A stretch of DNA of 61,614 nucleotides, the filler included. It is 11 parts of 11 records of this genome, joined end to end, with 100 filler letters (N's around TTAATTAATTAA, not from the genome) between each part and the next. Parts side by side here need not be neighbours in the genome. Positions count along the whole stretch, not along the records: positions 47,619 to 53,945 come from SRR7504441_4849; 10 more parts are not named here. One strand, 5' to 3'. A model generated the notes under the pieces. It did not search any database and was not told the DNA's origin. It worked only from the letters and a program-made list of their open reading frames with translations. Positions 15,753-54,154 of the stretch are shown here, piece by piece (positions within the stretch are counted from its first letter, which is position 1; every line of letters starts with the position of its first letter). A program made the position numbers and the translations under genes.

Positions 15753-18700
15753 GCGGATAGACAACTACGACCAGCGGATCACGGACGACTTGCAGCTCTT
15801 CCTGCAAGGATTCCTCGGGGCGATCATCGGCAATTTCAACTGCTTCATCCCGATGCTCTTCACCGTGATCCAGGCCATGGCCGGGCTGTTCGCGCTCATC
15901 CACCTGGGCGGGGACACCACCGGGTGGACTGTGCTCACCTGCGTGATCGTGCTGCTCCTGCTCGGCGCGGGGGTGCTGTTCACCATCAACCGGCTGTGCA
16001 ATCTCCAGTTCAGCCAGCAGCTGCGCGACGGCGACCTCCGGTTCGCCCACTCCAGGGCGGTGGCGCACTCGGAGTCGATCGCCTTCTACGGTGGCGAACA
16101 GCGCGAATTCAATGAGTGCAACTCGCGGTTTTCGCGGGCTGTGGTCAACTTCAGGGAGCTGATAGTGTGGCAGAGTCTGATCTACGGACTGCTGCAGGGC
16201 TTCACCTATCTGACTACCCCGCTGGCACTGCTGCTGCTCTATCAGTGGCAGGCGATCAGGCACAGCTGCACCGAGTCGTTCAAGGACATGTTTGAGGCTT
16301 TCCAGCTGATCCAGCTCTCGATCACCTCCTTCTACAACCTGCCGGCCGTCTACTCGAGCCTGACTCAGATCGCCGGGGTGACCCATCGTGTGGGCGAGCT
16401 GATCGAGGTGCTCGAGGAGCTCGAGGCCGACCTGATCCTCCGCCAGTTCTCACAGCAGGTCCAAGTGCTCGAGGAGAGCTCGGCCGCCCCGGCCCTGATC
16501 GAGCTCCGGGACGTAACCGCTGGCCCGCCCGGCACCGCCCTCCACCTTTTCAACAGGCTCAACCTAGTGGTGAGGGAAGGCGAATCAGTCGTGGTCCAAG
16601 GCCCGTCCGGGTGCGGCAAGTCGTCTCTGTTGCGGGTGATCTCGGGGCTGTGGGAAGTGGACGATGGGACGGTGATCAAGCCCCAGACCATAGGCCGCGG
16701 TGGCATCTTCTTTGTGCCGCAGCGTTCGTATATTGCGTTTGGAGGGCTGAGAGACCAGGTGACGTATCCACAGACCATCAAGTACGAGACTGGCAACTCG
16801 GACCCGGACGTGCTGGCTATCTTAGAGCTGGTCAAGTTGGACTATCTGGTGGCTCGATGGGGGCTGGACACCCCAGCAGACTGGTCCGGGCTCCTCTCAG
16901 GCGGGGAGAAGCAGCGGCTGGGGCTGGCGAGGCTGTTCTATCACGCACCCAAGTTTGCCGTGTTGGATGAGTCCACTTCAGCGCTGGATGTGCCGATGGA
17001 GAGCCGAATTCTCAAGTCTTGCCTCGACCGCGGAATGACTCTCATCTCAGTAGCACACCGCTCATCAGCAGTCCCAATTCACAAGCACATCTTCAGGTAC
17101 AATCCAAGCACCAAGGATTGGACACAGCACGAGGTGCCTGCTTCAGATCACGAGGCAGCAATCAAACAGGGCGCTGAACAGCAGCAGAAGTATGCTGAGA
17201 AGACAGAGTCCGATCCAAACGATGTGAGGGCAACAGATTCAGCAGAAGTGCCACGGCTTAAGGAGGCTCCGCGCAGTGGTATGTGGGATGCTATTCCGCG
17301 GCTTTGGAAGTTTATAAAACTTTCATCCCAAGAGATCAAGAGACCTCTTGCTGAGCAGTGCTTTGTTCGTCTGATTGCTGCATCTCTACTGGTGACAATA
17401 TGCTACTTCATTGGGGAAGCATTTGAGCGGATAGCTCTCCAAAGTTCTTGTAGCAGCAGTGCTGTCTCGTATGGGGCACTCGCCGTAGTGGCCGCCATTG
17501 GATGGGGAGTGTGTGATGGGGTGGGTGCATGGTATGCTTATACTTTAGCAATCGGAGTGCGAAAGGCTGTGGTCGACCACATGCATAGGCTGTACTTCCG
17601 ACCCAAAGTCATCTATGCCACAAACCACATTAGCAGGCTTGACACAGTCGATCAGCGATTCGTGCAGGATACAGTCGGAATGACTCAGTTCTTGGCGATT
17701 GTGTTGTTTGGATCCGGACCAGGTGTTGGTATGGTTGGACTGTTTGTATTTATTGTTGTTTGCTCCATTGCTGGAATGGTCTTCTTCTCCTGGTTCGTCA
17801 CTCTGAGTGTCCTGCTCTACTTTACTCTGGCTTACCTCTCTGTCCTTCCTGTTCAGAACCGGGTGACTGGCAATCAAATGGGTGTGCAATACTCTGAGGG
17901 AACTCTGCGCTTCTTCCATGCTCGCGTTCGATTGTTCACTGAGAGCATAGAGTTCTACCAAGGCGAGGCTGTCGAGCTGCAGAATGCTGACATGCTTCTG
18001 GATGGTGTGGTTGATGCTTACATTGAATGGGTGTGGAGTGCTGTGCCGCTCATGCTTGTACTAGTGGCTCAAGTCTTGCTGGGCACACAGATAGCATTGA
18101 TTATTCTATGCGTGATGCAATTTTATATGGATTCGATCTCTATCTCAGATAAGGATTCTGTGATCACTGCAACCTTCATATTCTTCACCCTCTTCTCGAA
18201 CATGTTGGGGGTTCTGGGTGTCTACTTTGGCCTGACAGCTTTTTTAGCAGGGTATGTGAATCGGGTTGCTCAGCTTGAAGAGACAATTGCTCAATATGAG
18301 CACTACGGCAATAATAACGAGGCAAGGATACAGAACTGTGACACTGTGCAGCTGCACGACCTCACTGTTGAAACACCAGGTGGTGATAAATGCCTAGTGC
18401 GTGGTCTCTCAATTTCAGTGGAGCATGGGGCCAGTTTAGTGATCATGGGCGAGTCAGGGGCTGGGAAATCGTCTCTACTTCGGGTTGTTGCCGGGCTCTG
18501 GGGTCCCACTAGTGGTTTTGTATCGCGCCCACTTGTGGGTCAGAGTCTCACAGGCGTGTTATTTATGCCCCAGACAAGCTATACAACCATTGGGACTCTC
18601 AGGGATCAAATTGTCTACCCACACCAGAGCACTGTCCGAGGAGCGCAAGGAGACAACCGGTTACTGCTAGAACTCCTTGAGGTGGTCCAACTGAGATATC

Positions 18701-19119
18701 TCGCCGAACGCTGGGGCCTAGACACAGTGGTGATCTGGGATGATCAGCTGTCTGGAGGTGAGGCACAGCGGTTGGGCTTTGCTCGGCTGTTCTACCACAA
18801 TCCAAGATATGCAATTATGGATGAAGCAACCTCTGCCATGGATGATGATCTTCAACACAAAATGATGTCAGAATGCTTGAACCGAAGTATCACAATCATA
18901 TCTGTTGCTCATAGACCGCAGGTGATTGCCTACCACGAGAATATCTTGCGACTAACTGGGGATGGATCGTTTGAGCTAGTGGCAACTAGTGCTTCAAACG
19001 AGAAATTACCTCTGATCTCCTTTGAAAAGAAAATTCTTAATCAATCCACCGAGGCGCTCGTGGGAGTTGCACTGCCGTTCATGAAGTCAATGGATGATTT
19101 AAAAGAAGACAAGTTATAG
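15753..19119 (+). CDS. Full-size ABCD-family (peroxisomal-type) ABC transporter, 5'-partial, intronless
   Basis: DNYDQRITDD, EAA-like HSESIAFYGGE, two NBDs (GPSGCGKSS and GESGAGKSS), LSGGEKQR and LSGGEAQR signatures, and LDESTSA and MDEATSA Walker B motifs. Confidence 0.93.
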
Positions 19120-30000: not shown

Positions 30001-33000
30001 TGTTTTATCAGAGGCATTACATGATTCCAGCAAAGGTCAACGACTTCAGGCCACCAGATTACCGTCTTCGATATCATGTTGCTTTCAACTTACCTCGGAC
30101 GGGCCTGTTCGTCATCTTCATGCTCGCAATCGTGGATTCCTCGTGCCTCAATTTCGCCTACCTGCTTTTTCTGGCGTACTATGCCTGCAGGTCAAGATAT
30201 CTCAGCTGGTGTCCTGATCCCTGGTGAGGCCCTGCCCCGCCAGTTGGTGTGGCCCTCTGATTAGCCCTTAGGTTGCTCTCCTTTCGTCTTTTAAACATGA
30301 TCGGCTGTATCTGTATCTTTTTGGACAATGCACCCTTCACGCCGCACAACAGCGACCAGAACAACTGGGCTGGCAACCTCATTCTTGATAAAACTGGCGA
30401 TTGGTGGATTCATCCGTTCGTGTTTGGTATCTTGAACATCATTTCAGAGGTTTATCTCTGGCCGAAGTACATTGATACGGTGATGATGAGATTCATCAAA
30501 GAGCACGTTAGCAATGAATCCTTTAGAAGACTGATGACCAATGAGGTACACACCCAAGCGCACAAAGTTCTTGAGCCATTTTTGATCCCCGTGCTGCAGA
30601 TAGATGAATGGAGAAGAGCAGAGATCAAGGAGGCCAACGACAACGCCAAGTTACAGAAGTACCTTATGGAAGTGGGGGGCGTTTTTCACGGTTAATAATG
30701 ACTGGCGCTCAACTAACTGATTGGTGTCCCAGGCTGGGAAGTTGCGAACAAGGCTCAGAAAAATGCTGAGGTCTGTTCAACACAAGAATACCTAAATGCA
30801 ATCGGCTCTACACAAAAACATGTATGCTCCATGTCTGCTAAGTCTCAAATCTGGTCTAGGACTGTGCTTGTGCTATTGGCTCAGTACCTGAGTCTGTTCT
30901 CTCGCCCCATCGCTTGTAATAAGGATCAAGACAGGCTTGCCCTGAGTTTTGTCGTTTTGTCGAAGGTGCTTGAGCGCATCGCGTCTGGGACAACGCAGAG
31001 GCTCCGGCACAGCGAAAGTCAGAGGCTCGTAGAGGAGATCAAGGCATCCCAACAGGTAAGGAATGCAACGGAGGCCTTTGCCAACCGGCTGCATGAAAGC
31101 ATGCTCGGCTCCTCATTTGCTGGATCCTTGGATTCTGCATCAGACTGCCTTGCCTACGCTGTGAAGTTGAAGAATCGCCTTGAAAAGAGGAGTTTTGTTT
31201 TTTCTGGAGCACCGGTATCTCCTAGGAAAGCCAGACTACCTCCGGTATCTCCTAGGAAATCAAACGTCCAAGAAGAAGCAACAAGCAAAGAAGACAGCTT
31301 CTGCGAGCAGACGCTGCAATTCTTGAGCAGGCTCTGTCACCTCTTGGGAAGGGTGTTCCTAAAGTGCTTCTATTTTCTCGGAGGGAACTCAAAGGATTCA
31401 CCCCAGCTAGATAAGTTCACGGTCAACGAAGATCAGGTTGACGATGAACTCTTCGCGCTGCAATTTTTGTCTGGTTTCAATGCATTGGTGCCCGGACAGC
31501 CCATGATCAATAAGATGACCAACCTGCCAGCTCATGATCAGTTTACAATAATGTTGAATTCATGGGCTCACTCGAATGTGGACATCGAAAAGATAGTTGC
31601 TGCCACTATACGCCGAAGAGTGACTGGCGAAGAAAATCACCAACTTGGATCGGAGTTCTGCGATAATATCGAGCGTCATGAACTTCAGGGCAACAACGAG
31701 CGCTTGTGCAAGGAGTGTCAAACCATGCAATTGCTGTTCAGGCCAAAGAAGGAAGGTGTAAATGGGAGGGAGGGCGGATCAGAGTGTCAGGCTTGTGGCC
31801 TGTATCTTGATTTCCAGAGGGCTTTCGTTGGGTATAGCAGCACAAGGCGGCGACGCGGTCCAGCCGGGCGAGTTCCGTCAATGACAGGCAGTAAAGACTT
31901 CAAAATGCATCTGGAAGCAACGCTTGCCCCCAGAGCTTGGGAGCCACTGTGGTATCGCTTAGGAATCCAATGGGATCATCTGCGAGCGCTGGTATGCTGC
32001 CAAAGTCAGCCAGCTAATGATCTCTGTCGTTAGGTGCGTAACAAAGTGTTAGCCTCGAGCAACATGCCTCAAGATACTCTAGCTACGAGCATATCTTGGA
32101 AGTGTAACAAGGTCATCGAGGTTGTCTGGGATCGCATGGAATTGCAATGTGCTGCTCTTGTTCAGAAGCTGCGTGATTTGCGCGTACGCGAGGAGGAAGC
32201 CGGGTTTAACTCGCCGCATGTCGATGCTTGTAGTCTTAATGTGAGTCATACAGTCCAAGAGCGCTCAGAAGATGAAGATGCCGACGAGTCACTGGGTAGT
32301 GCCCAGTCCGATTGGAGATATTCTCACCAATCGGACAACTGCATGTGTCTTTCCTGCCTATTGTGTCGTAATGTGCGATCTGTTATCTACACACTTCCAG
32401 AAAATCAGAGCAACGCCAGGTGCACCAAGTTTCTGTCTCATCTGGAGATTTTGGAACATCCAACCGCTGGGATGCCGTCAGGCATTTTTCTAGCGCAGCG
32501 CTTGGAGCGTAGGCAGAAGATAATATCTGATTTTGAAAGTGACACCAAGGCCCGTCATCTTGCTGTTCGGCGTACCCTTCTTCAGGAAATCGAGAAATTC
32601 ATCAAGGCTGTGATTGATGCTGGGAAAAGTCCTCTGGAGGTGCCTTACAAAGACGTAGACGACTTGGTATGCCCAAACAGCAAATAAATCATGACAGAGT
32701 GTGTGTTTGCCATGCAGCTTGAAAGCATTCTACACCTAGCAACCATTATCATGAGCATCGAGCTTCTCAGACTCCAGGTATCTTCTGCGCAAAGCAGTTA
32801 TTGAGATTGTATTTTGGTCAGTATTTCAAAGTTGGCTCCTCTGCATTAGAGTCTCGTGAACTGCTCGAGGCTGTGGAGCGACTGCAGCAGGTTTGCGGCA
32901 CCACTAGCTAGGTACTAAAACCGTGTGCAGCTCGAAGGAATATGGTCAGGACAAGCAGACGATGATAGTCACACAAGGTCTCGGCATGACGAGACAAGCG

Positions 33001-36000
33001 ACATCGTAAAAGCCGACATGGACTTGTTTTACTATGCAGGCAGTGAATACCTCCATGATCTCAGAACCTCTTTGCTGGAGCACATTCCGTCAGCAATGCG
33101 CGTATGGACAGTGCGCCTTCTAATCTGGCTAGAGATGGCATCCAAAGATACGAGAGTCGTCCGGTATTCCACAAGTCACAGTGAAGAGCAAAAGAAACTT
33201 TCAAGTGTGTTGGATTACGGTAAGGATATGCTCTCAATAAGTTTCCAAGTGGCAAAAGCTGGCCTTAAAGCTATGCAGAACCAAGCAGATACTGTCACAT
33301 TCATACTTTGCTTTGTGGCCCATGCATACTCTGGCTCTCTGACTTCGATGGTTTATCCGCTAACTGCAATTTGCTATGGAGCTATGGTTCGCCCACGGCC
33401 ATCAAAGTACTATTGGCAGTTCGTTGTCTTCTACTCGTTGTCTCTCATATGCCTGAAATTTTGTTTCACCGTCCGAATATGGTGTAAGAGTGACGACGAT
33501 TTCTCTCTGGCACTACATAATAGCTGCAGCAGTGAATCGACAAACTCTGTTCCGTCCTATTACGAAGTCACGTATCTTTTAGGTATCTTTCCCGGAAGCC
33601 GCGGGTGGTTTTTCGCGGAGATTGCTCTGGAATTCTTTATATGCTTGTTTGCACACATGAAACAGACGCATCTTGTTGCCATCGGACAGTGGCGTGCTAA
33701 TCAAAGGAAATACCTCAATGATCTGGCGGCTAGCATGCCAAAGTGTGGCCTCAGTTATAAGACACGCCGAAATTACGTGCTATACGAGAATTGCGAGGAC
33801 TACACTAGAATCGTGACTCCAGAACGAGTGCGGGCCGCTGTTGTAATTCAACGCCGCTGGAGAAAAGTGCGACGTTGGAGAGCCTATGTAAAATCAAAGC
33901 AGCAAAAGGACCTATCAGGATTAGACGCATATCTAGCCCAGCAGCGTGAGGATGAAGATGAAGTGGGCAAGGCATACAATGCCAGATACTATGCGGAAGA
34001 TTACTACGTTCAAATCTTGGGGTGGTCAATGATCGGGTTTCTCTGGATGCTCATCTTTTACCCCACAGTGAATCCCGATTGGTTTGACTATTATTCATCT
34101 GGAGCTGTGACTGATGTCAGAACTGTTTTCAGTATGGACACCATCGAGATCTCATACCTTGGATGTTTGATGGCTTTGTTTGTCTCAATGGTGATCGATC
34201 GTGTGATTTATCTCTTGAGAGCCAGATTTGCGAAACAGATATATCAATGGTTTTGTGTTCTATTGCTCCACCTATGCATGTTCGTCACCTTCAAGATGCA
34301 GGCGACCTCTCCGTATTACCGCTGCATCCTGGTTTCTATATTCTACTTCATCGAATGCATGTATTTGTATTATTCGTCGCTGCAAATCCGAGCTGGCTAC
34401 CCATCAAACACCCAACAAGATCATCTGTTGTCAAGGGACGAGGTCCATCGTGATCTACCTAGCGACTATACGCGCAAAGATCTCATCCACTCCATTGAGC
34501 TTCGTCCAAGTCTGTTGACTAATATATCATATTTGGGGTTCAGGGCTATTCCATTCTTATTTGAGATGAAGTGCATATTGGACTGGTGGTTCATTCCTAC
34601 CACGTTGGATCTGATTGAGTACATCAAGTTGCAAGATTTGCACGGCACTGTCTTTTCAGTTGCGTACACACGCACAATCGAAGAGAAGGACAACCGCTAT
34701 GTGGGAGAAAGGCAGGTTAGATGGTACAAGTACTTAGCCGGTGGCTTGGTCTTTGTACTTCTCGTTGCCCTCATATGGTAACTTAGACAATTGTAGGCAG
34801 CACATGAAACCAGTGTTTTGCAGGGGACCTCTTCTGATTTTCAGCAGTATTTCGCCTTTCCTAAAAGAGAACGGGGCGAACTCTATTAGTTTCGAGGTGA
34901 GCTTGGTTGGTGCTGCATCAGAGACTGTTATTTTCACATCGTCAAGCCGCCAGTATGCAAGCCCGAGCGATGGCCAGTACAATGCGTATAGCAGGTGGCT
35001 TAGTAATAATCCTGGACGCTGCATAACTGAGATATTTTGCAAGGAATACCATAGATATTGCGACGCCAAGGCAAGTGGACCAACTTTGGGCCTTCGAGCG
35101 GACCTCGTCAACAATGCTTTTGGTGGGGCTCCCCATGTGACATCTCTTTCACCCCTTGCAGGTGCCTGCAAGCTATCTGGAATCGTGGCTTTCGACTTGG
35201 ACCAGCCAAGAAGTGTCAATAGAATATGTAGTCACGCGCAGCGAGCCTCCTAGTCACGAGGTACGACACCGATTCTCAAATGGCACGCTTGCTCTTCGGC
35301 CGAGGCCTAGTTTTTGACAACTATTTTTTGATCAACGCACTCTTGAGAGTTGCCTGCATGCAGGTTGTCACTAGGACAAACACATACCCTCTCGATAGTA
35401 GCACAGTGACCAATGCCAAAACCGCGATCGGTGCAGTCATCGAGAGTTACAACTTGCGCCAATCGAACACGCAGCAATTCAGCCTTGGCAACGTGTGGAC
35501 CGATGCTCTCTCGTGCGGCCAGACTGGCTGCAGCGACACAAACACATACTTACATGGTTTAACAGCTGAAGTAGAAACCAGTGGATATGAGGTCACACTC
35601 CTGACCTGGCCCCAGTGGATTAACCAGTCTATTGACAGATCTGGTTTCGCTTGTGCATAGAAGCTTACTGTGCCTCCTCAACAACCCAGGGCGAAAGCCA
35701 GGGCCTTGAACTGTTTTTGAAGAATGACGGGGTGCCAATCTTAGCGAATCTGCTCTCAAGTTGGGAATGCAGGTGGTCACTGGCATTTTTGCAAGCGATA
35801 GTTTCTCCTTGACTGCTATCTACCTGACAGTCGTACTGGTAGTTGCAAACATTATTCGTCAAATGCTCAAGGTATCTAGATTGACAGAGGTATGATAATT
35901 GATGGAATTTGCGTCAGGGTGTGGCTCTAAAAATCATGTATCACGATATGGAGGATACGCGGGTTCCTGTATTCCTGTGCTCAACAATTGCCAAGGCACG

Positions 36001-46488: not shown

Positions 46489-46609
46489 CGCAGGGTGCTG
46501 CAGCCTGATGCAGACTGCAGTGGTCAACTCGGACCGGTCGCTGATGATGAGGATTTTTTATTACTGAGCGTTACCGGTATTGGAGCCACAGGCCACGCCA
46601 CTGCCGCCG

Positions 46610-47489
46610 ATGGGGCAAGACCTGTCGAAGAGCCTGTCGTCGGTCGAGCTGGCCCAGCTCCGAGCCGACCTGGAGGCCTCCTACCTGGCTGTGGCGGCCG
46701 AGGCGCTCGAGCGCCGGCAGAACGCTGGGCTCTCAGGGCACACCCGACAGGCAAATCTGGAGCGGGAGGCTCAAACAGTCAAGGTGGACGCGGTGGCAGG
46801 CTGGGTGCGAAACGGCTGGCACGACCCGCTCAACCCAGCCAACCAGCAGAAGTGGCTCAATTACGGGCTGGTGGTCGGGTCGAGGGTGATGCAGACTAAT
46901 GCGGCTGGCTGCCCGGCCACCATGCAGTTGCTCGACCCGTGGATCAAATTCATCGAGGTGGCCGGGTTCTCGTGGCTGCAGCCGGGGGCGCGCATCCCGG
47001 AGCACACCGACGACCGGGATCCGTTGGCGTGGTCCAAGGTGGTCCACCTCGGACTGCAGGTGCCGGATCAGAACCAATGCTACCTCGAGACCAGTCAGCA
47101 GGCGGCTGGGCTAGATGAGTCAGATACGGTGCTCCGGCTGGACGAGGCGGAGGGCAAGAGCTTGTGCTTTGACGACATGTTCCCGCACAGAGGTGCCTGG
47201 CCGCTGATACCCCAGCGCTTGTAACACGAGTGTGGTCACAGCGTGGAACAACAGCGAGCACGACAGAGTAATTCTGTACCTCAAGTGCAGGACTCTCCCA
47301 CCCAACAGCGAGCGGGAGCGGCTCGAGCGCCAAAAGCAGCTGCTGGCCGAGAGCGTGGCCGAGTGCGAGGAGAGGAGAGAGGAGGAGCCTGGTTGTGTTG
47401 CTCCGGCAGCTAGCATGAATAGCAGGACTGCGGCGCTGCAGGAGCTGGACAACCAGTTGAAGCGGACCCTCAAGTTGCATACGAGGTGA
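46610..47489 (+). CDS. Aspartyl/asparaginyl beta-hydroxylase-domain 2OG-Fe(II) dioxygenase
   Basis: AGFSWLQPGARIPEHTD, VHLGLQVP, EGKSLCFDD and AWNNSEHDRVILY, plus a short coiled-coil tail. Confidence 0.85.
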
Positions 47490-47618
47490 GGAGTCGCGCG
47501 TGCAGTGTAGCTTAAAAANNNNNNNNNNNNNNNNNNNNNNNNNNNNNNNNNNNNNNNNNNNNTTAATTAATTAANNNNNNNNNNNNNNNNNNNNNNNNNN
47601 NNNNNNNNNNNNNNNNNN

Positions 47619-49232
47619 TGGTGGGTTCGATTTCTGAAGCAATGCACATTTGGAACCTTCATTAACACAATGATCATCCTGAACGTCTTACTCGCAGTGT
47701 TTGTGTATCCACGGGCAAAATATCAGACTGATCTAGAGAAGCGGACATGCACCAGTGGTGACAACCTATGGCAATTTTTCTTTGGATTTGTTTTCCTGCT
47801 TGACGTCATTATCTGCTCTCTCGGACAATCCACAAAGCAGCAACCACTGCGGTACCTCTACTCGCGGCAGCCAGATAGTGAGCACGTTTACAACTGGATG
47901 GATATCCTAGTTGTGCTCATGATGTTGTTGAATAGCATCTTTACTTGCATCGCTGCCCCCCGCTCAGGTATGATCGAGAGCTTTGTTGGTATCCTTCGTG
48001 TTTGTAGGGTTTTCCGCATTGTACTTCATTTCAAAATATTCAAGAAGATGTACATTGCAAGCAGCCGCGTGATTCCTGCAGTCGCGCCGCAGTTGGGGCT
48101 TTTTGTGATTTTCTATTATGGGTTCTCAGTCATTGGCATGACATTGTTTGCGGGCTGTGTCACTGAAGAGGTCGACTACGGCGGCCCTGGACGATGGGAG
48201 ACCACACCATGGGACACTTACTTCTTTGCTACGGCGGGAACTAGTTACTACAACCTCAATTTTGACAATTTGTGGTCAGCAATTGTGACTCTTTTTATGC
48301 TGATGATCCAGAACAACTGGCATGTCACAGTAGACGGCTACGTCCAGTGCACAAATACCAAATGGACCAGGCTGTATTTCTTCCTATTCAACTTGACTGT
48401 CGCTCAGGTCATGATCAATATCTTCGTCGGTATTCTGCTCGACGTGTTCCAGGTCTACTGGGACGAAGAAAGGAGGGAAGGTGACGCCTCTCACGAGGAC
48501 TCTACTATCAGCTCATTCTACATGGTACTCGTGCAGAGAATGCAATATCGGCGCAATTCAAGTAACATTCTGCTAGCTGACAAGTGGCAACTTGAGCGCA
48601 AGATCTCTTCACAGGATGTCTATGCCGGACCAAGCGATGCCGCAAGACTAGCTGGCGAACTGGATGTGAAGACTGAAAGAGAAGGTATCCGCGATATTGC
48701 CTTTTCGATGCCAATTCCTGCATACTGCCGGACTTCAACCAATAAGATTGCATATTGTAACCAGGCATTCGCTGCATTGTACAATACCAAACCTGTGTCG
48801 CTCATTGGATCGTATGCAAACCACGAGGTCATTCATGATAAGCCGCAGAAGCTTAGGGATGTGAAGTGGAATGAACTGGCGCGTGAAAGGGGTGCATGCA
48901 TCGAATACAATGAGACCGCGATCTTTCCAGACGGGACGGAAGTTAGCTTCAAATGCCATGAGCAGCCTATCAAATTTCCCCCCTTTCATAACACGACTAT
49001 CGTGTACATGTATCCTGCAGGACCAGGATGTAGCAATTTGCGCCAGTTGGTTGATCGAGGGTTTCTCACACCGCCTACGATTTCTCGGAAACGTACTTGG
49101 TTTGGTGTGCCGGCTCATTCTGGTATGGAGAAAAGGCCAGGGGAGGACGCACAACAAAATAAGTTAACAGGGGATGCAGCAATCAATTATAAGACGGATG
49201 CTGAGGAATCTGACCACTGCACCAACATTTGA
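47619..49232 (+). CDS. Two-pore channel (TPC) domain II with C-terminal PAS-like domain, 5'-partial
   Basis: Six TM segments, S4 LRVCRVFRI, pore YYNLNFDNLWSAIVTLFMLMIQNNW and S6 INIFVGILLDVF. PAS-like segment at ~48687-49015. Confidence 0.85.
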   Translation, partial: WWVRFLKQCTFGTFINTMIILNVLLAVFVYPRAKYQTDLEKRTCTSGDNLWQFFFGFVFLLDVIICSLGQSTKQQPLRYLYSRQPDSEHVYNWMDILVVLMMLLNSIFTCIAAPRSGMIESFVGILRVCRVFRIVLHFKIFKKMYIASSRVIPAVAPQLGLFVIFYYGFSVIGMTLFAGCVTEEVDYGGPGRWETTPWDTYFFATAGTSYYNLNFDNLWSAIVTLFMLMIQNNWHVTVDGYVQCTNTKWTRLYFFLFNLTVAQVMINIFVGILLDVFQVYWDEERREGDASHEDSTISSFYMVLVQRMQYRRNSSNILLADKWQLERKISSQDVYAGPSDAARLAGELDVKTEREGIRDIAFSMPIPAYCRTSTNKIAYCNQAFAALYNTKPVSLIGSYANHEVIHDKPQKLRDVKWNELARERGACIEYNETAIFPDGTEVSFKCHEQPIKFPPFHNTTIVYMYPAGPGCSNLRQLVDRGFLTPPTISRKRTWFGVPAHSGMEKRPGEDAQQNKLTGDAAINYKTDAEESDHCTNI

Positions 49233-49526
49233 CGACGCAGGATTCATGTAAAGGAATCCAGACGGAACCACGTTTCATGTTCGGACAAACATAGGACAAA
49301 CATAGGACAAACCATAGTAGTAAGCAAAACAACCATGAGTGATATATGAGTGAGTGAACATTTGAGGTTAATTTGAGGTGAAACTAACGAGCCATTGAGT
49401 TCGTGAGGAATTTAGAGGAATTGTTAGAACACCAGGTGCCTCTACTTAATTAAACAAGCAAGCAATCATAATATAGAATAACCTCCGATCTCCAATGGCG
49501 TTTATTTTGTTTCGATTAAAATGACT

Positions 49527-52079
49527 TTACTTGTCATCGTCGACTTCTTGGATTTTGTTACCCGGAATGAGTACCCGGGCAGCCACCGAAAGAGCATCAT
49601 TCGCAAACTTTTCAAAGTAATTTGGAAAGTAGTCAAAGTGCACTGAATTGGATGCTATGTATTCTTCAATGATTGTGTTGCCGATAGGTGAGGCTCCGTC
49701 TTCCTTCACCAGATCTTCGACTGCGTCCAAGCATGTGGTGAATAGCTCAAATATCACGTCTGAAAGGCGCGATAAGCTAGAAACCACTTCCATCTCTGTT
49801 ACTGAGCCGTCGCCATCGATGTCAAGAATTCTGAACAGATGAGGCAATTTTGAGGCAACATCTAGTTTAGGGTCAGCAAGTTTCACAGCACTCTCGAATT
49901 CTTCCTGGTCCACAGTGCCGGAGTCATTTCGATCCAGAAACCGAAAGTAGGAGGTGACCAAACCATTTGGGTTCGCAGCAGCCTTTTCTCTGACCTTCTG
50001 CCCAAACTCGGAGGACAGTCGAAGTGTTTCCTGCATCGATTTGGGTACACCCTCTGAGTCAGGTGCAGGAAGTGAAGGTAATAGAGCCAAGAACAAATCT
50101 ATTTGATTTGCCATGATGTTGACTGACAGATCTGCGAAGCTCTCTGTCGTCAGCCCCTCAGCGGCGCAGCTGCTTGGCAAGTTCAGTTTCAACTAAATTT
50201 CTCAACTTTCTCACGCTTTTGAGATCTTCCTTGCCCGTCAGTGACTTGATCAGCATCTCTATCGGTGACATCCATTTATCGCCAAAATCTACAGATGCAA
50301 GCCATTGCAAATGAGCAGCGATGAGAAATCCCAGCGACTCACAATCGGCTATCGGCTCATCGCCATCGTCCTCAGACAGATCGTCAAAGAAGGACATCAA
50401 TATTTCGCGATGCTTATCACTATTCTTCTCTCCAACTGCTGCTATTGCAAGTAGCTCGCTATGTCTTGCTCTCAAGAATGAGACCTGCTCTTGCACAGGC
50501 AGCAGCTCATCAATCGCTTGTGAAACCCCGAACGGTAGCTTACTTTTGACATTGGCCAGGTCTTCAACCTCCATAGAGAGAATCCTTAACTCGCGCTGCA
50601 GCTTAGCGGCCACTTTGGTGAGCCGAGCGTTGTCTGATTCTAACTCTAAAAGCTGCCTCTTGAGTGTCAAAGTGCTCCTGTGCACGGTGCTTTCTGTCAT
50701 TTTCTGACTCTTCACCTTTTTGGCCTCGGTGAGCAGAGCATTAAGTTCTTCTATTTCCTCAGTTCTTATCATGTCGTCAATGTTGTCTTCAGCAGGGTTC
50801 TGGCAGCCAGCCGCGCCAGGGCGCTTCTTGGCCTTTGGTACGGCACAGCCTTCCTTTCGGAGATCCTTTTCCAGTTGCTTACAATGCTTTTTTAGCCCCA
50901 GCATCTCTAGTTGCGAGGAGCTTAGCAGTGTGTTCAAGGACTCTGCAAACTTCACCGCCTCATCATTTGAGTGGTTGCACGACAAAGTTGCCCGCTGCTT
51001 GGCATTGATATGGGCGCGAGTGAACTTCCTCTGTACACATGGGCGTTCAGTCAGGAGTACAGACATGCAGGCTCTAGGCCACTTGCCTCTGTTCCTTGAC
51101 GTTCTGTTGAATTGAATAACTTGGCCCATTCCAAATGTGCTGCTTTGGCCTGCACAGTCTGTCAGGACCATGCTGCTCTACAAGATTACCTGCCCAACGA
51201 CTTTTCTCGCACGCTCACTGCCATCTACTGCATGCTGCAACCGCACCCTTCAGGCTGCTATTTCCTGGCTACGCACCAACAGTTCAGCACACTTATCCAG
51301 CAGGTCTCGGTAAGCAGATGGCTGTACCTCAGGAACCTGCTCCACTGGAGGTGCTAGCACCTTTGGGGCCGCAGGGACGGGCGTCTTTGTCTTCGGCTTC
51401 GACTGCGTCACCTTCGGCATCAGCTGCTTTGCCCTTGCCTTCTCCTGAGCCTCGGGTGGTGCTGGCTCTGGCGTTTGAGCTGGCTCCTTGGGTGGCTCGA
51501 TTCCAGCAGCTCTGCACACGCCGGAAAGGGTAAATATGATAAAGTGGTGCACAACAGAGATACTTATCATTGTAGGGCTTTTGTCCAGTCTTGCCCAGCG
51601 CCTTCCAGAGGGTCCTGCACAGCAGCTGGGTGGGCGACCGGAGTGCCCATGCTCACTTTAGTTTGGCTTCGACGCCATCCTCGTCCAGCTCAGGGTACTG
51701 CTTGGCCAGCGCGTCCTCCTTTGCGTCCACAAACATATCGAAACCAGTGGGCTTGGGATCTGTCCCCGGGTGGGCGGGTTGTCGCTGCAGCGTGCCACCT
51801 TCGAATCGGATGGTGTACGGGTGCGTGCTGCCGCTGATCACCTTTGCCACTGCGGGCGGCTTCAACCCGAGCAGGTCGCACACTGCCAGCCAGCTCAGGC
51901 TGCGCGCGCCGCCTGGCCGGACCCTCGCCGTTGGGTCGGGTGACGGCGGCGAACAGCATTCCGATCGAGTCGGCCTTGTCCGCGCCTGCGCTGAGCACGT
52001 AGGTGCCTTGCTCGTGGGGCGCCAGTTTGAGCCCCAGCGGCCCCTTGGCCGCCACCTTGACCTCGATCGACCCCGGCAT
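49527..52079 (-). CDS. Multidomain protein: PDZ-like, HMG-box-like, coiled coil, paired EF-hands; multi-exon
   Basis: KGPLGLKL...PYTIRFE, then spliced PKPTGFDMFVDAKEDALAKQYPELDEDGVEAKLK|TLWKALGKTGQKPYND|KA, a heptad region, and loops DRNDSGTVDQEE and DIDGDGSVTEME. The junction near 50160-50190 is ambiguous. Confidence 0.68.
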
Positions 52080-52219
52080 CTCGGCCCGGCTCAGCCGCCC
52101 GCCGCCAGCCTGCTGCACGGGCACCTCAACACTTTGGTGGGCAAAAACGATCACAGTAACGGCATTGCATGCGGAGGGAGGAGAGGTGCTGAGCAGGGGC
52201 GGGATGTAGCAGGGGCGGG

Positions 52220-52675
52220 ATGGTGCTGTACCTGCAGGGGGCGCCGCTGGACACATTATTCCAGATCTGGGTGTACATCACCTTCTGGATCGTGCTCTAC
52301 TTCGCCGGGGTGTACACCCTCTGCGGGCTCTACGTAGGCTGCCGGGTGATCAGCCGCTGGCACGGGCTGATCTGGGCCCCGCCGCTGGCGCTGCTGGTGG
52401 GTGCGGTGGTCGGATTCCTCACGGGGGCGATGCCTGGGCTAGTGATCGCCGGGCTGTACGAAGTCGGCGGGTTCTCGATGACGGAGCTGCACGCCCAGCT
52501 GTGGGCGGTGGTGGTGGCGGTGCTGATGCTGTACAACTCGCTCGGGCGCAAGTATTACACCGGCGGCAAGCACTTTGATGAGGTCGAGCTGAGCTCCACC
52601 AGCGGCTACTCCACCCCGCGGCATAGGGCCACAGGCAACAAGAAGTTCGGGGCGGACACTTCGGACGCGTTCTAG
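52220..52675 (+). CDS. TMEM170-like small membrane protein
   Basis: 151 aa with three hydrophobic blocks. LDTLFQIW...FW and IAGLYEVGGFSM...LW resemble the TMEM170 pattern. Confidence 0.6.
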   Translation: MVLYLQGAPLDTLFQIWVYITFWIVLYFAGVYTLCGLYVGCRVISRWHGLIWAPPLALLVGAVVGFLTGAMPGLVIAGLYEVGGFSMTELHAQLWAVVVAVLMLYNSLGRKYYTGGKHFDEVELSSTSGYSTPRHRATGNKKFGADTSDAF

Positions 52676-52884
52676 CCCGAAGTCGATAGATAGGCCGGGC
52701 GTAACCCAAGGGTTGGCGAGCAGCTCCCTACCTCGGATAAAGGCATTCACGCTTATTCACACTAATCTAGAGTACGGGTACATACATAGGACCGTGCTCT
52801 ATTTCGAATCACATGTACGCACTACCGTAGCTACCGTACCAAGCGATACAATATACGTGCGATCCATCGAGCCTCGGAAGTGTG

Positions 52885-53761
52885 CTACAGCTTGCTATCG
52901 CCCAGCAGCGACCTAGAGAGCTCGGCGAGCGCCGGCTGCATCCCGAACAGTGCATCGAGCCTCGGCCGCACGTCGGGCAGCGTGTCGAGTTCTCTCAGCA
53001 GCCTGAGCACCACAGGGAAAACATCGTCCGGCTCGCCCACGAAGTCCGGCACCTGCCCGCACTCAACCGGCCGGCCGGACCGGCGCGCCATGATTCCGTT
53101 CTGCGGCTGACATATAAAGCTCATCGGGTTGTTGTCGACCTGCGGCCACTCGGCTCTGCGCCTGCCCCGGGCCTGACCAGCACGCAGCGATCAAGCTGGT
53201 CGGTGATTACACTTAGATCCTTGAGGTACTGCAGCCCGCCGTTCTGCGCCACCCGCACCCGCCTGCCCGTCGGCTGGCCCGGCGGCCGGCTGAGCTTGCC
53301 GCCTGCAGTGGTGCCGATAGAACCGCCCCTTGATCAGCGACCCGGTCGGGTCCAGTCGGTCGAGCAGCGGCTCGGCGTACGGCTGGGTGCCGGCCGTAAA
53401 TACAAAGCAGTCGAACTCGGCCGCACACTCGGCCAGAAATTGATCCAGGCCCGGCCGCTTCAGCACCTCGCACCCGGACCCATCGGCCTGTCCGCCAGTA
53501 GGTGGCCAGCCGGCAATCGGGCACCATGGTCAGCCAGAATGATTCAACCCCTGGGCGCGGGGCGACGCGGTCCGGTCGGCTAGCCTCGTGCTGGCGCAGG
53601 TCGGACGGTACCGAAAAGCCCGTGCTATGGATCAGACATTCGTCCATGTCCAGCACAACCACCAGCCGGCCAGGCCCGGCCTGCTCCGACAGCCGGCGGG
53701 CTGGAGCCGGGCGCACCCCTCGGAAACGAGCACCCTCGACTGCCGATCGCAGCCGCCGCAT
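52885..53761 (-). CDS. NIF/FCP1-like (CTDSP-type) HAD phosphatase, multi-exon
   Basis: VVLDMDECLIHS, VLKRPGLDQFL, VFTAGTQPYA, FYRHHCR, YLKDL and VDNNPMSFICQPQNGI. Confidence 0.88.
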
Positions 53762-54154
53762 CTGAGAAGCGCTCCGCTTCTCTACGCCGTTGCAACACGT
53801 CGTCGGCGATCGATGGGTCAAGGACGACAGTGCACGAGTGGACAGCAGTGCAACAGTGGACAGCTGAGTAAATTGTGGGCGGAGACTAGTGAGGCGATCT
53901 CAAACACAAGCGGCAGTAGGCTCGGCGGCAAGCCATCGTTGTCCTNNNNNNNNNNNNNNNNNNNNNNNNNNNNNNNNNNNNNNNNNNNNTTAATTAATTA
54001 ANNNNNNNNNNNNNNNNNNNNNNNNNNNNNNNNNNNNNNNNNNNNAACGAGCAGAATGCGTGCATCATATGCTAAAATCGCATGAAATATAATTGTCGAT
54101 CGTTAGGATTAGTACGGGTACATCGTTACGACCAGACGCTCAAGAACTGATCAA

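Follow-up and report, generated by a model that had tools for sequence, protein, structure and literature searches.

A distinct clade of marine two-pore channels that very probably carry a PAS domain behind the second pore

Introduction

In animals and plants, two-pore channels (TPCs) govern the release of ions from vacuoles and acidic organelles. The route by which messengers reach the gate of these channels has long been debated, and animal TPCs need separate accessory proteins for activation by messengers. The locus described here raises the question of whether a TPC can carry a sensor in its own chain, and what such a domain would do below the gate. The locus is the 3′ part of a gene in a stretch of DNA of 61,614 nt (hereafter the window, meaning the whole stretch that was analysed), a chain of about 11 short contigs. 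Its product, P0001, had been read in the initial annotation as repeat II of a TPC that continues into a C-terminal PAS-like domain. The data presented below indicate that the channel part belongs to the TPC family and that the tail is predicted to have a PAS fold, a combination that recurs in related proteins from marine sources and represents a conserved, apparently undescribed channel design.

Results

Channel and tail share one conserved reading frame

The TPC-PAS gene stands at the very start of the contig that spans 47619-53945, and its frame is open from 47619 to the TGA stop codon at 49230-49232. The initial annotation had described an uninterrupted open reading frame (ORF) at 47670-49232; this was confirmed, with the correction that the open frame actually begins at 47619, so the earlier start falls inside it. 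The peptides quoted in that annotation were found where they had been placed (NFDNLW from 48258, QNNW at 48309-48320, IRDIAF from 48687 and YMYPAG from 49005). On its 5′ side the ORF is bounded by the end of the contig, about 10 residues ahead of S1 of repeat II, and not by a start codon.

A word-indexed protein search returned 10 relatives at E ≤ 1e-3 (among 8000 candidates scored), and the relatives derive from a marine metatranscriptome catalogue, two EukProt transcriptomes, and Logan, JGI and ENA assemblies. P0001 is 33-52% identical to seven aligned relatives; with the closest relative, the metatranscriptome protein P0002, tblastn aligned it at 50.7% identity across 456 columns. Near-identical pieces of both the channel part (47767-48244 and 48354-48520) and the PAS part (48680-48830, 48832-48982, 48804-49210 and 48916-49113) occur in contigs of three RNA libraries, two of which had been selected by poly-A or oligo-dT, and no joints were seen in them. 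The RNA contigs leave 47619-47766 and 48520-48680 uncovered, which is no proof in either direction. In addition, a DNA contig of another run covers 48471-48703 with zero differences. Channel and PAS domain lie in one frame in the transcriptome-derived proteins P0004, P0009 and P0012, and likewise in P0002, where the PAS domain is cut short. These single-frame relatives are stronger evidence than the RNA contigs for a channel and a PAS domain on one message. Judged by this conservation, the ORF is a real coding sequence.

In RNA run X1, two contigs depart from the window sequence, at 48325 and at 49210 (the latter 20 bases before the stop codon), and have loose ends of 131 and 32 letters. They may stem from a related strain or reflect an alternative 3′ end.

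The channel part belongs to the TPC family

Repeat II of P0001, which comprises a complete set of six transmembrane segments (Table 1), aligns to repeat II of the solved TPC3, TPC1 and TPC2. In P0002, the equivalent of the arginine-rich S4 of P0001 aligns to its counterpart in repeat II of solved TPCs, and the pore segment of P0002 aligns to the VNNW of TPC1, TPC2 and TPC3, with Gln instead of Val as the first filter residue. Since the contig breaks off immediately ahead of S1 of repeat II, the two-repeat state of the window gene is taken from its relatives. The repeat I pore is present in both P0002 and P0004, as are a linker with EF-hand matches, repeat II and the tail. When these two proteins were ranked against the PDB, TPC3, mouse TPC1, human TPC2 and Arabidopsis TPC1 stood above every voltage-gated calcium or sodium channel (Cav/Nav), TPCs filling the top 14-15 places. 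For P0004 the E values were 9e-33 to 1e-20 against solved TPCs, compared with 8e-21 against Cav/Nav. The repeat I motif of the relatives, LYVALTTANHPDIMM, aligns onto TTAN-PDVMM of TPC1, TPC2 and TPC3, and the pore motifs of both repeats match those of solved TPCs residue for residue. All relatives that reach into repeat I have TTANxPD there, as TTANHPD in P0002, P0004, P0166, P0168, P0170 and P0171; the seventh is P0169. P0004, a EukProt entry, is probably 5′-truncated despite its 'complete' label; its residues 1-23 look like what we take to be translated sequencing adapter.

A complete member of the family came from a metagenome scan. At locus L001 an in-frame stop lies 12 bases upstream of the first ATG, so the encoded protein, P0166, is complete at 1133 residues. 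P0166 displays two Ion_trans stretches flanking an EF-hand pair, and the hidden Markov model (HMM) of the tail matches residues 882-1081. The AlphaFold (AF2) model of the protein is of moderate quality, with a mean predicted local distance difference test score (pLDDT) of 60, repeat II and the PAS domain being its best parts. In a Foldseek search with this model TPC structures occupied ranks 1-16, and the model aligned over whole TPC chains; by TM-score normalised by target, mouse TPC1 reached 0.69, human TPC2 0.70-0.74 and Arabidopsis TPC1 0.52-0.67, and Cav/Nav chains at most 0.34. The channel part therefore belongs to the TPC family, as initially proposed: the relatives carry the TTANHPD repeat I, the EF-hand linker and repeat II, solved TPCs come first by both sequence and fold, and the ambiguity that repeat II leaves when it is considered by itself (see Discussion) is settled by these relatives.

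The tail is predicted to adopt a PAS fold

A Pfam match, profile similarity and fold assign the tail of P0001 to the PAS domains. The Pfam model PF00989 covers residues 363-451 and, when the tail was scanned alone, scored 24.5 bits (E 2.9e-5), above its cut-off. An alignment of six tails (A2) was used both for folding the window tail and for the profile search. In the resulting AF2 model tail residues 46-155 (P0001 365-474) have pLDDT values of 72-88, with strands at tail positions 49-52, 58-61, 109-116, 122-131 and 141-148 and helices at 63-67, 73-76 and 97-105. A cap helix comes first, then two strands and short helices, and a longer helix leads into three long strands. The model thus displays the five-stranded antiparallel sheet and the beta2-alpha(3-4)-beta3 order of the PAS clan, and it superposes on solved PAS domains. 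In the PDB, Foldseek found 322 matches at E ≤ 1e-3, with LOV and other PAS domains at the top.

Against 1.84 billion representatives the tail profile matched 333 proteins at E ≤ 1e-3, 30 at ≤ 1e-10 and four at ≤ 1e-30, the strongest matches being fragments of the TPC-PAS family itself. The profile also matches multi-PAS proteins at E values down to 9e-16. A Pfam scan of ten of the matched proteins showed five to be long multi-PAS proteins, of which three have histidine-kinase domains; three others carried Ion_trans and two had no Pfam match. These results support the earlier proposal of a C-terminal PAS domain, and the modelled structure indicates that the tail is a PAS fold. A two-copy complex prediction for residues 320-480 scored 0.01, which gives no evidence either way on a PAS homodimer.

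Tail-bearing channels form a clade with a variant filter

The tail HMM matched 28 of the 47 proteins scanned. Those without a match were fragments that stop short of the tail, the cluster members P0013-P0017, tail-less TPCs, four-repeat channels and P0170; P0170 and its sister P0171 show a weak Pfam PAS signal, at 16.9 and 21.2 bits. In an unrooted maximum-likelihood tree of repeat II (18 rows, none dropped), the 11 tail-bearing rows lie on one side of a 99/99 branch together with P0010, a fragment that stops before the tail. On the opposite side are six tail-less two-repeat channels, which include a Thalassiosira exigua protein and none of which matches the tail profile. These analyses show that the window protein belongs to a distinct TPC clade; a single gain of the PAS tail is the simplest reading of this unrooted tree.

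The selectivity filter of repeat II follows the same split, with QNNW in 18/18 family sequences and VNNW in 6/6 tail-less TPCs. The filter is MGN in plant TPC1, VNN in human TPC2 and diatom TPC1, and VND in the diatom channel TPCL, and a change from MGN to VNN renders the plant channel Na+-selective (excerpted text of PMC11085791). The x-N-N-W of the clade resembles the VNN of animal TPC2 and is unlike the plant MGN, and the alignment to solved TPC1, TPC2 and TPC3 agrees with this, which upholds the initial view that the filter is closer to that of animals than to that of plants. As read from the aligned residues, QNN is a new filter variant on the animal-like side.

Complete clade members share one order of elements: an N-terminal region, a six-transmembrane repeat I with a T-A-N filter, an EF-hand pair, repeat II with its arginine-rich S4 and Q-N-N filter, the linker and the PAS domain. 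In most members, the window protein excepted, the PAS domain is followed by an EF-hand-like loop.

Conserved residues of the linker and the PAS domain

Across residues 320-480, which comprise linker and PAS domain, 26 positions are conserved at ≥90%. In the linker W323 is found in 12/12 sequences, S331 and G337 each in 12/13 and D340 in 13/13. The conserved PAS positions include P365, P367, Y369, R371, T372, N381, F384, Y388, R413, Y430, E432, F444, C446, E448, T460, M464 and P466. The motif F-x-C-x-E occurs in 14/17 family sequences, and its cysteine, C446, is the sole conserved cysteine of the PAS domain; from the strand register we infer that it points into the core. The flavin-cysteine motif of LOV domains, G-x-N-C-R/K-F, was found in 0/17 family sequences, which bears out its absence from the window protein as first reported, and there is no histidine among the 26 conserved positions.

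Beyond the PAS domain, the EF-hand-like loop of the relatives is degenerate in P0001, where VDRGF (49050-49064) occupies its site. This loop, DxDGDGxL, directly follows the last PAS strand in 9/17 family sequences (P0003, P0004, P0005, P0006, P0009, P0012, P0018, P0166 and P0168). Within the PAS domain, three relatives (P0019, P0041 and P0167) contain loop insertions of 87-130 residues.

Two further variations were observed in the tails of relatives. A cysteine-rich insert of four to five Cys and a His lies in the PAS domain before the long helix in P0166 (residues ~960-990), P0004, P0005, P0006 and P0018, and is absent from P0001; this insert, restricted to one subclade, may be a metal site. 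In P0167 (L002 1-3105) the PAS domain is followed by ~450 extra residues that match nothing in Pfam, and the linker between S6 and PAS has an Ala/Gln/Asp-rich low-complexity stretch.

Discussion

The termini of TPCs lie in the cytosol, and the gate is lined by S6 of repeat II. The PAS domain of P0001 lies ~80 residues below this helix; taken with the cytosolic termini, this position makes it most likely that the domain is a cytosolic regulatory module. The arginine at every third position of S4 and the two asparagines of the filter lead us to read the protein as a voltage-dependent, Na+/Ca2+-permeable channel of an internal membrane, with an endolysosomal or vacuolar location suggested by the family to which it belongs. 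We propose that the PAS domain would act as a built-in module that changes the open probability of the channel, docking on its cytosolic face via the linker, which has its own conserved motif, and biasing opening. In the sensing role that we favour, a small ligand or a redox change would be read by Y369, R371, T372, N381, Y430, E432, C446 and E448, and the signal would be passed to the gate or to the EF-hand domain.

The components of this proposal differ in strength. We consider it very probable that the protein is a real TPC with a true PAS fold, and likely that the PAS domain regulates gating in some way. Regulation through ligand binding or redox sensing is plausible but somewhat doubtful. 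Overall, a TPC with a regulatory, sensing PAS domain in its own chain is the best explanation of the data, and one that we favour with some reserve. It is a tentative and rather unlikely extension of this explanation that these are the first TPCs with a ligand or redox sensor in the channel chain, in which the binding of a messenger or metabolite, or the thiol redox state of C446, would directly gate an endomembrane Na+/Ca2+ channel.

Several observations weigh against the favoured explanation. Searched alone, repeat II has Cav3.2 as its top solved match (2.6e-20), marginally ahead of TPC3 (4.9e-19), and tblastn with P0002, P0004 and P0010 located no repeat I elsewhere in the window. PF00989 is borderline in the whole protein (22.3 bits vs a cut-off of 22.6) and reaches E ≤ 0.01 in only 3/17 family members. 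No RNA contig extends across 48520-48680, and RNA libraries can hold DNA. No cofactor signature was found in the PAS domain, neither the LOV motif nor a conserved histidine, and the apparent inward facing of its conserved residues is deduced from strand register. Finally, the window protein has lost the EF-like loop, so the regulatory logic may differ within the clade.

The alternative that survives best concerns the function of the PAS domain. The N-terminal PAS (eag) domain of KCNH channels is thought to be a docking module, and the PAS domain of the TPC clade could similarly be a ligand-free structural or allosteric docking module, whose protein contacts shape gating kinetics, dimer assembly or trafficking. 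The lack of a cofactor motif is consistent with such a role, the conserved pre-PAS residues W323, S331, G337 and D340 suggest a docking surface, and the large loop insertions tolerated by three relatives indicate that the constraint is on the core scaffold only. However, the near-invariance of polar or reactive residues in the strands and first helices of the core (R371, T372, N381, E432, C446 and E448) goes beyond the needs of packing, and the structural neighbours are mostly ligand-binding PAS domains (VqmA-DPO, PYP and RpfR-fatty acid), although a shared fold does not show function. A ligand-free module is possible without being probable, and we regard it as nearly equal to ligand or redox sensing.

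Far less credible is a gene for a single-repeat, tetrameric channel of the voltage-gated type with a PAS tail, which we consider improbable. The missing repeat I and the slight lead of Cav3.2 would fit such a protein, as would the transcriptome proteins P0009 and P0012, which begin with Met shortly before repeat II, P0009 being labelled a complete ORF. Against this, the contig end at 47619 explains the missing part, the TTANHPD repeat I is present in P0002 (51% identity), P0004, P0166, P0168, P0170 and P0171, and P0001 falls inside the clade of these repeat-I-bearing relatives. More improbable still is a chimeric assembly at the channel-PAS junction, or decay of the ORF into a pseudogene. The window does derive from a fragmented metagenomic assembly of heterogeneous composition, and the RNA contigs leave the junction unspanned, but the same junction occurs in independent sequences under five source labels (merc, Logan, EukProt, JGI and ENA), the DNA contig of the other run crosses it without differences, and the frame is stop-free and conserved throughout. 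Least credible of all is a light- or gas-gated channel, with the tail as a flavin photoreceptor of the LOV type or a haem sensor with a His ligand: LOV domains top the Foldseek list, which also contains the haem-PAS protein DosP, but a flavin photoreceptor is made unlikely by the missing LOV motif and a haem sensor by the missing conserved histidine, the proximal ligand of haem-PAS domains being a histidine on the F helix. LOV identity (no adduct-cysteine motif in any of the 17 sequences) and a FixL/DosP-type haem sensor (no conserved histidine in the PAS domain) were accordingly rejected as assignments for the tail.

The favoured explanation, a TPC with a regulatory PAS domain in its chain, can be placed among known systems. 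The canonical TPCs (animal TPC1, TPC2 and TPC3 and plant TPC1; PDB 6c96, 6nq0/8ouo, 6v1q and 5dqq) are its best sequence and fold matches, and share with the clade the two six-transmembrane repeats per chain, TTANxPD, x-N-N-W and the arginine-rich S4 of repeat II. The EF-hand pair between the repeats is found as in plant TPC1. Unlike canonical TPCs, the clade has Gln for Val at the first filter position of repeat II, and a C-terminal linker with a PAS domain. Diatom TPC1 is a marine protist TPC with EF-hands and an animal-like filter, although this is VNN where the clade has QNN; TPCL, with VND, has no EF-hands (excerpted text of PMC11085791). The nearest named relative, the Thalassiosira exigua TPC P0172, is 25% identical, ends soon after S6 and has no PAS domain.

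KCNH channels (EAG/ERG/ELK) are single-repeat K+ channels with an N-terminal PAS domain and a cyclic-nucleotide-binding-homology domain. The clade resembles them in having a PAS domain on the same chain as a voltage-gated-type channel. It differs in the C-terminal position of this domain, in the two repeats (known from relatives) and in the QNN filter, and Pfam finds only Ion_trans and PAS; on the same four grounds, with QNNW as the filter, KCNH identity was ruled out. By the language-model features of the Protein Atlas the nearest clusters are KCNH fragments, at 0.86-0.88, below the lead threshold of 0.9. The similarity to KCNH is one of domain composition, not of descent. The PAS sensors 3fc7 (HTR-like protein), 6ugl (VqmA), 3b33 (NtrB) and 1odv (PYP) are 13-17% identical to the tail, and their ligand-binding residues cannot be mapped. 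The output in the clade would be an ion channel gate, whereas in stand-alone or kinase-linked PAS sensors it is a kinase, cyclase or DNA-binding domain.

Full-text literature searches found no description of a TPC with a PAS domain; it is in the sense of these searches, which covered papers and not InterPro, that the design is called undescribed. In the diatom TPC survey the TPC section names no PAS domain and 'PAS' appears once in the text, a statement that covers the excerpted main text and not the supplementary alignments (PMC11085791). None of the tail-bearing sequences found comes from NCBI or UniRef sources, and the scarcity of PF00989 calls among the 17 members would hide the architecture from domain databases. 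The TPC-PAS design would surprise channel specialists. With its QNN filter and a PAS domain attached directly beneath the gate helix, this TPC clade of marine protists is a natural experiment in sensor-to-gate coupling. Together with KCNH, whose PAS domain sits at the other end of the chain, it gives the voltage-gated channel superfamily two independent cases of such a domain, and it points to an unexplored signalling route in ocean plankton. If an in-chain sensor is indeed present, the clade would provide a tractable model for ligand gating of TPCs and a compact, engineerable PAS-gated cation channel.

Source of the gene and other features of the window

The contigs of the window are separated by ten identical spacers, N44-TTAATTAATTAA-N44, at sites that span 5850-57252, each of which gives stop codons in all six frames. 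As the spacers are artificial, the adjacency of contigs in the window is no evidence for linkage. The larger ORFs are eukaryotic, encoding Piezo, a peroxisomal-type ABC transporter, an alpha-N-acetylglucosaminidase, a WD40 protein and an FGE-sulfatase-domain protein, and the public sequencing runs that hold parts of the stretch are marine metagenomes and metatranscriptomes only, with a word share of at most 0.21. On these two grounds the source of the TPC-PAS gene is an uncultured marine microbial eukaryote. A giant-virus origin was dropped; the 76 pattern matches among viral contigs included no relative. At the 5′ end of L001 no dinoflagellate spliced leader was evident by eye, no search for it having been made. 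The features of the gene are listed in Table 1.

Table 1. Positions of the TPC-PAS gene and its parts in the window
Feature	Position	Strand	Basis or remark
Artificial contig join, N44-TTAATTAATTAA-N44	47519..47618	.	Sequence read; marks 5′ truncation of TPC-PAS gene
ORF, 537 codons + TGA, 3′ part of TPC-PAS gene (protein P0001)	47619..49232	+	Open frame; 50.7% identity to P0002
Repeat II, complete six-transmembrane (S1-S6), residues 11-278	47649..48452	+	Pfam Ion_trans E 5.5e-21; hydrophobic segments
S4 of repeat II, GILRVCRVFRIVLHFK, Arg every third position, residues 124-139	47988..48035	+	Candidate voltage sensor
Repeat II pore helix and selectivity filter ending QNNW (48309-48320; residues 231-234)	48258..48320	+	
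Post-S6 predicted cytosolic linker with family motifs DKW (48579-48587) and YAGPSD (48621-48638)	48453..48677	+	Low model pLDDT
Predicted PAS domain, residues 354-474: N-terminal cap helix and beta2-alpha4-beta3 core	48678..49040	+	
PAS core, residues 365-467	48711-49019	+	
F-x-C-x-E (FKCHE, C446), fourth PAS strand	48948..48962	+	F444 12/12, C446 11/12, E448 11/11
C-terminal end, poorly conserved, predicted disordered	49041..49229	+	pLDDT 26-47

Sharp shifts in GC content occur within single contigs and even within one ORF. In the ABC-transporter ORF (15757-19119, +) third-position GC is 0.94 at the 5′ end but has dropped to about 0.45-0.55 by the 3′ end, and the contig 47619-53945 has a GC content of 39-50% until about 51.1 kb and mostly 53-73% thereafter. 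Such shifts could reflect a 5′-to-3′ GC gradient, a mosaic genome or chimeric contigs.

On the contig of the TPC-PAS gene, an ORF for an EF-hand protein (49527-50192, -) is convergent with this gene and lies ~300 bp past its stop codon. It overlaps, in another frame, a coiled-coil-like ORF of 339 codons (50158-51177, -) with no Pfam match, and the two may belong to a single gene interrupted by a short intron or a frameshift. The preceding contig, unlinked to the TPC-PAS gene, contains an ORF (46568-47224, +) with an aspartyl/asparaginyl beta-hydroxylase domain (E 2.7e-16). The Piezo homologue, on another contig of the same bin, is an uninterrupted ORF of 620 codons (32919-34781, +) of the mechanosensitive-channel type, which matches the THU9/anchor and transmembrane helical unit domains (E 1.2e-49).

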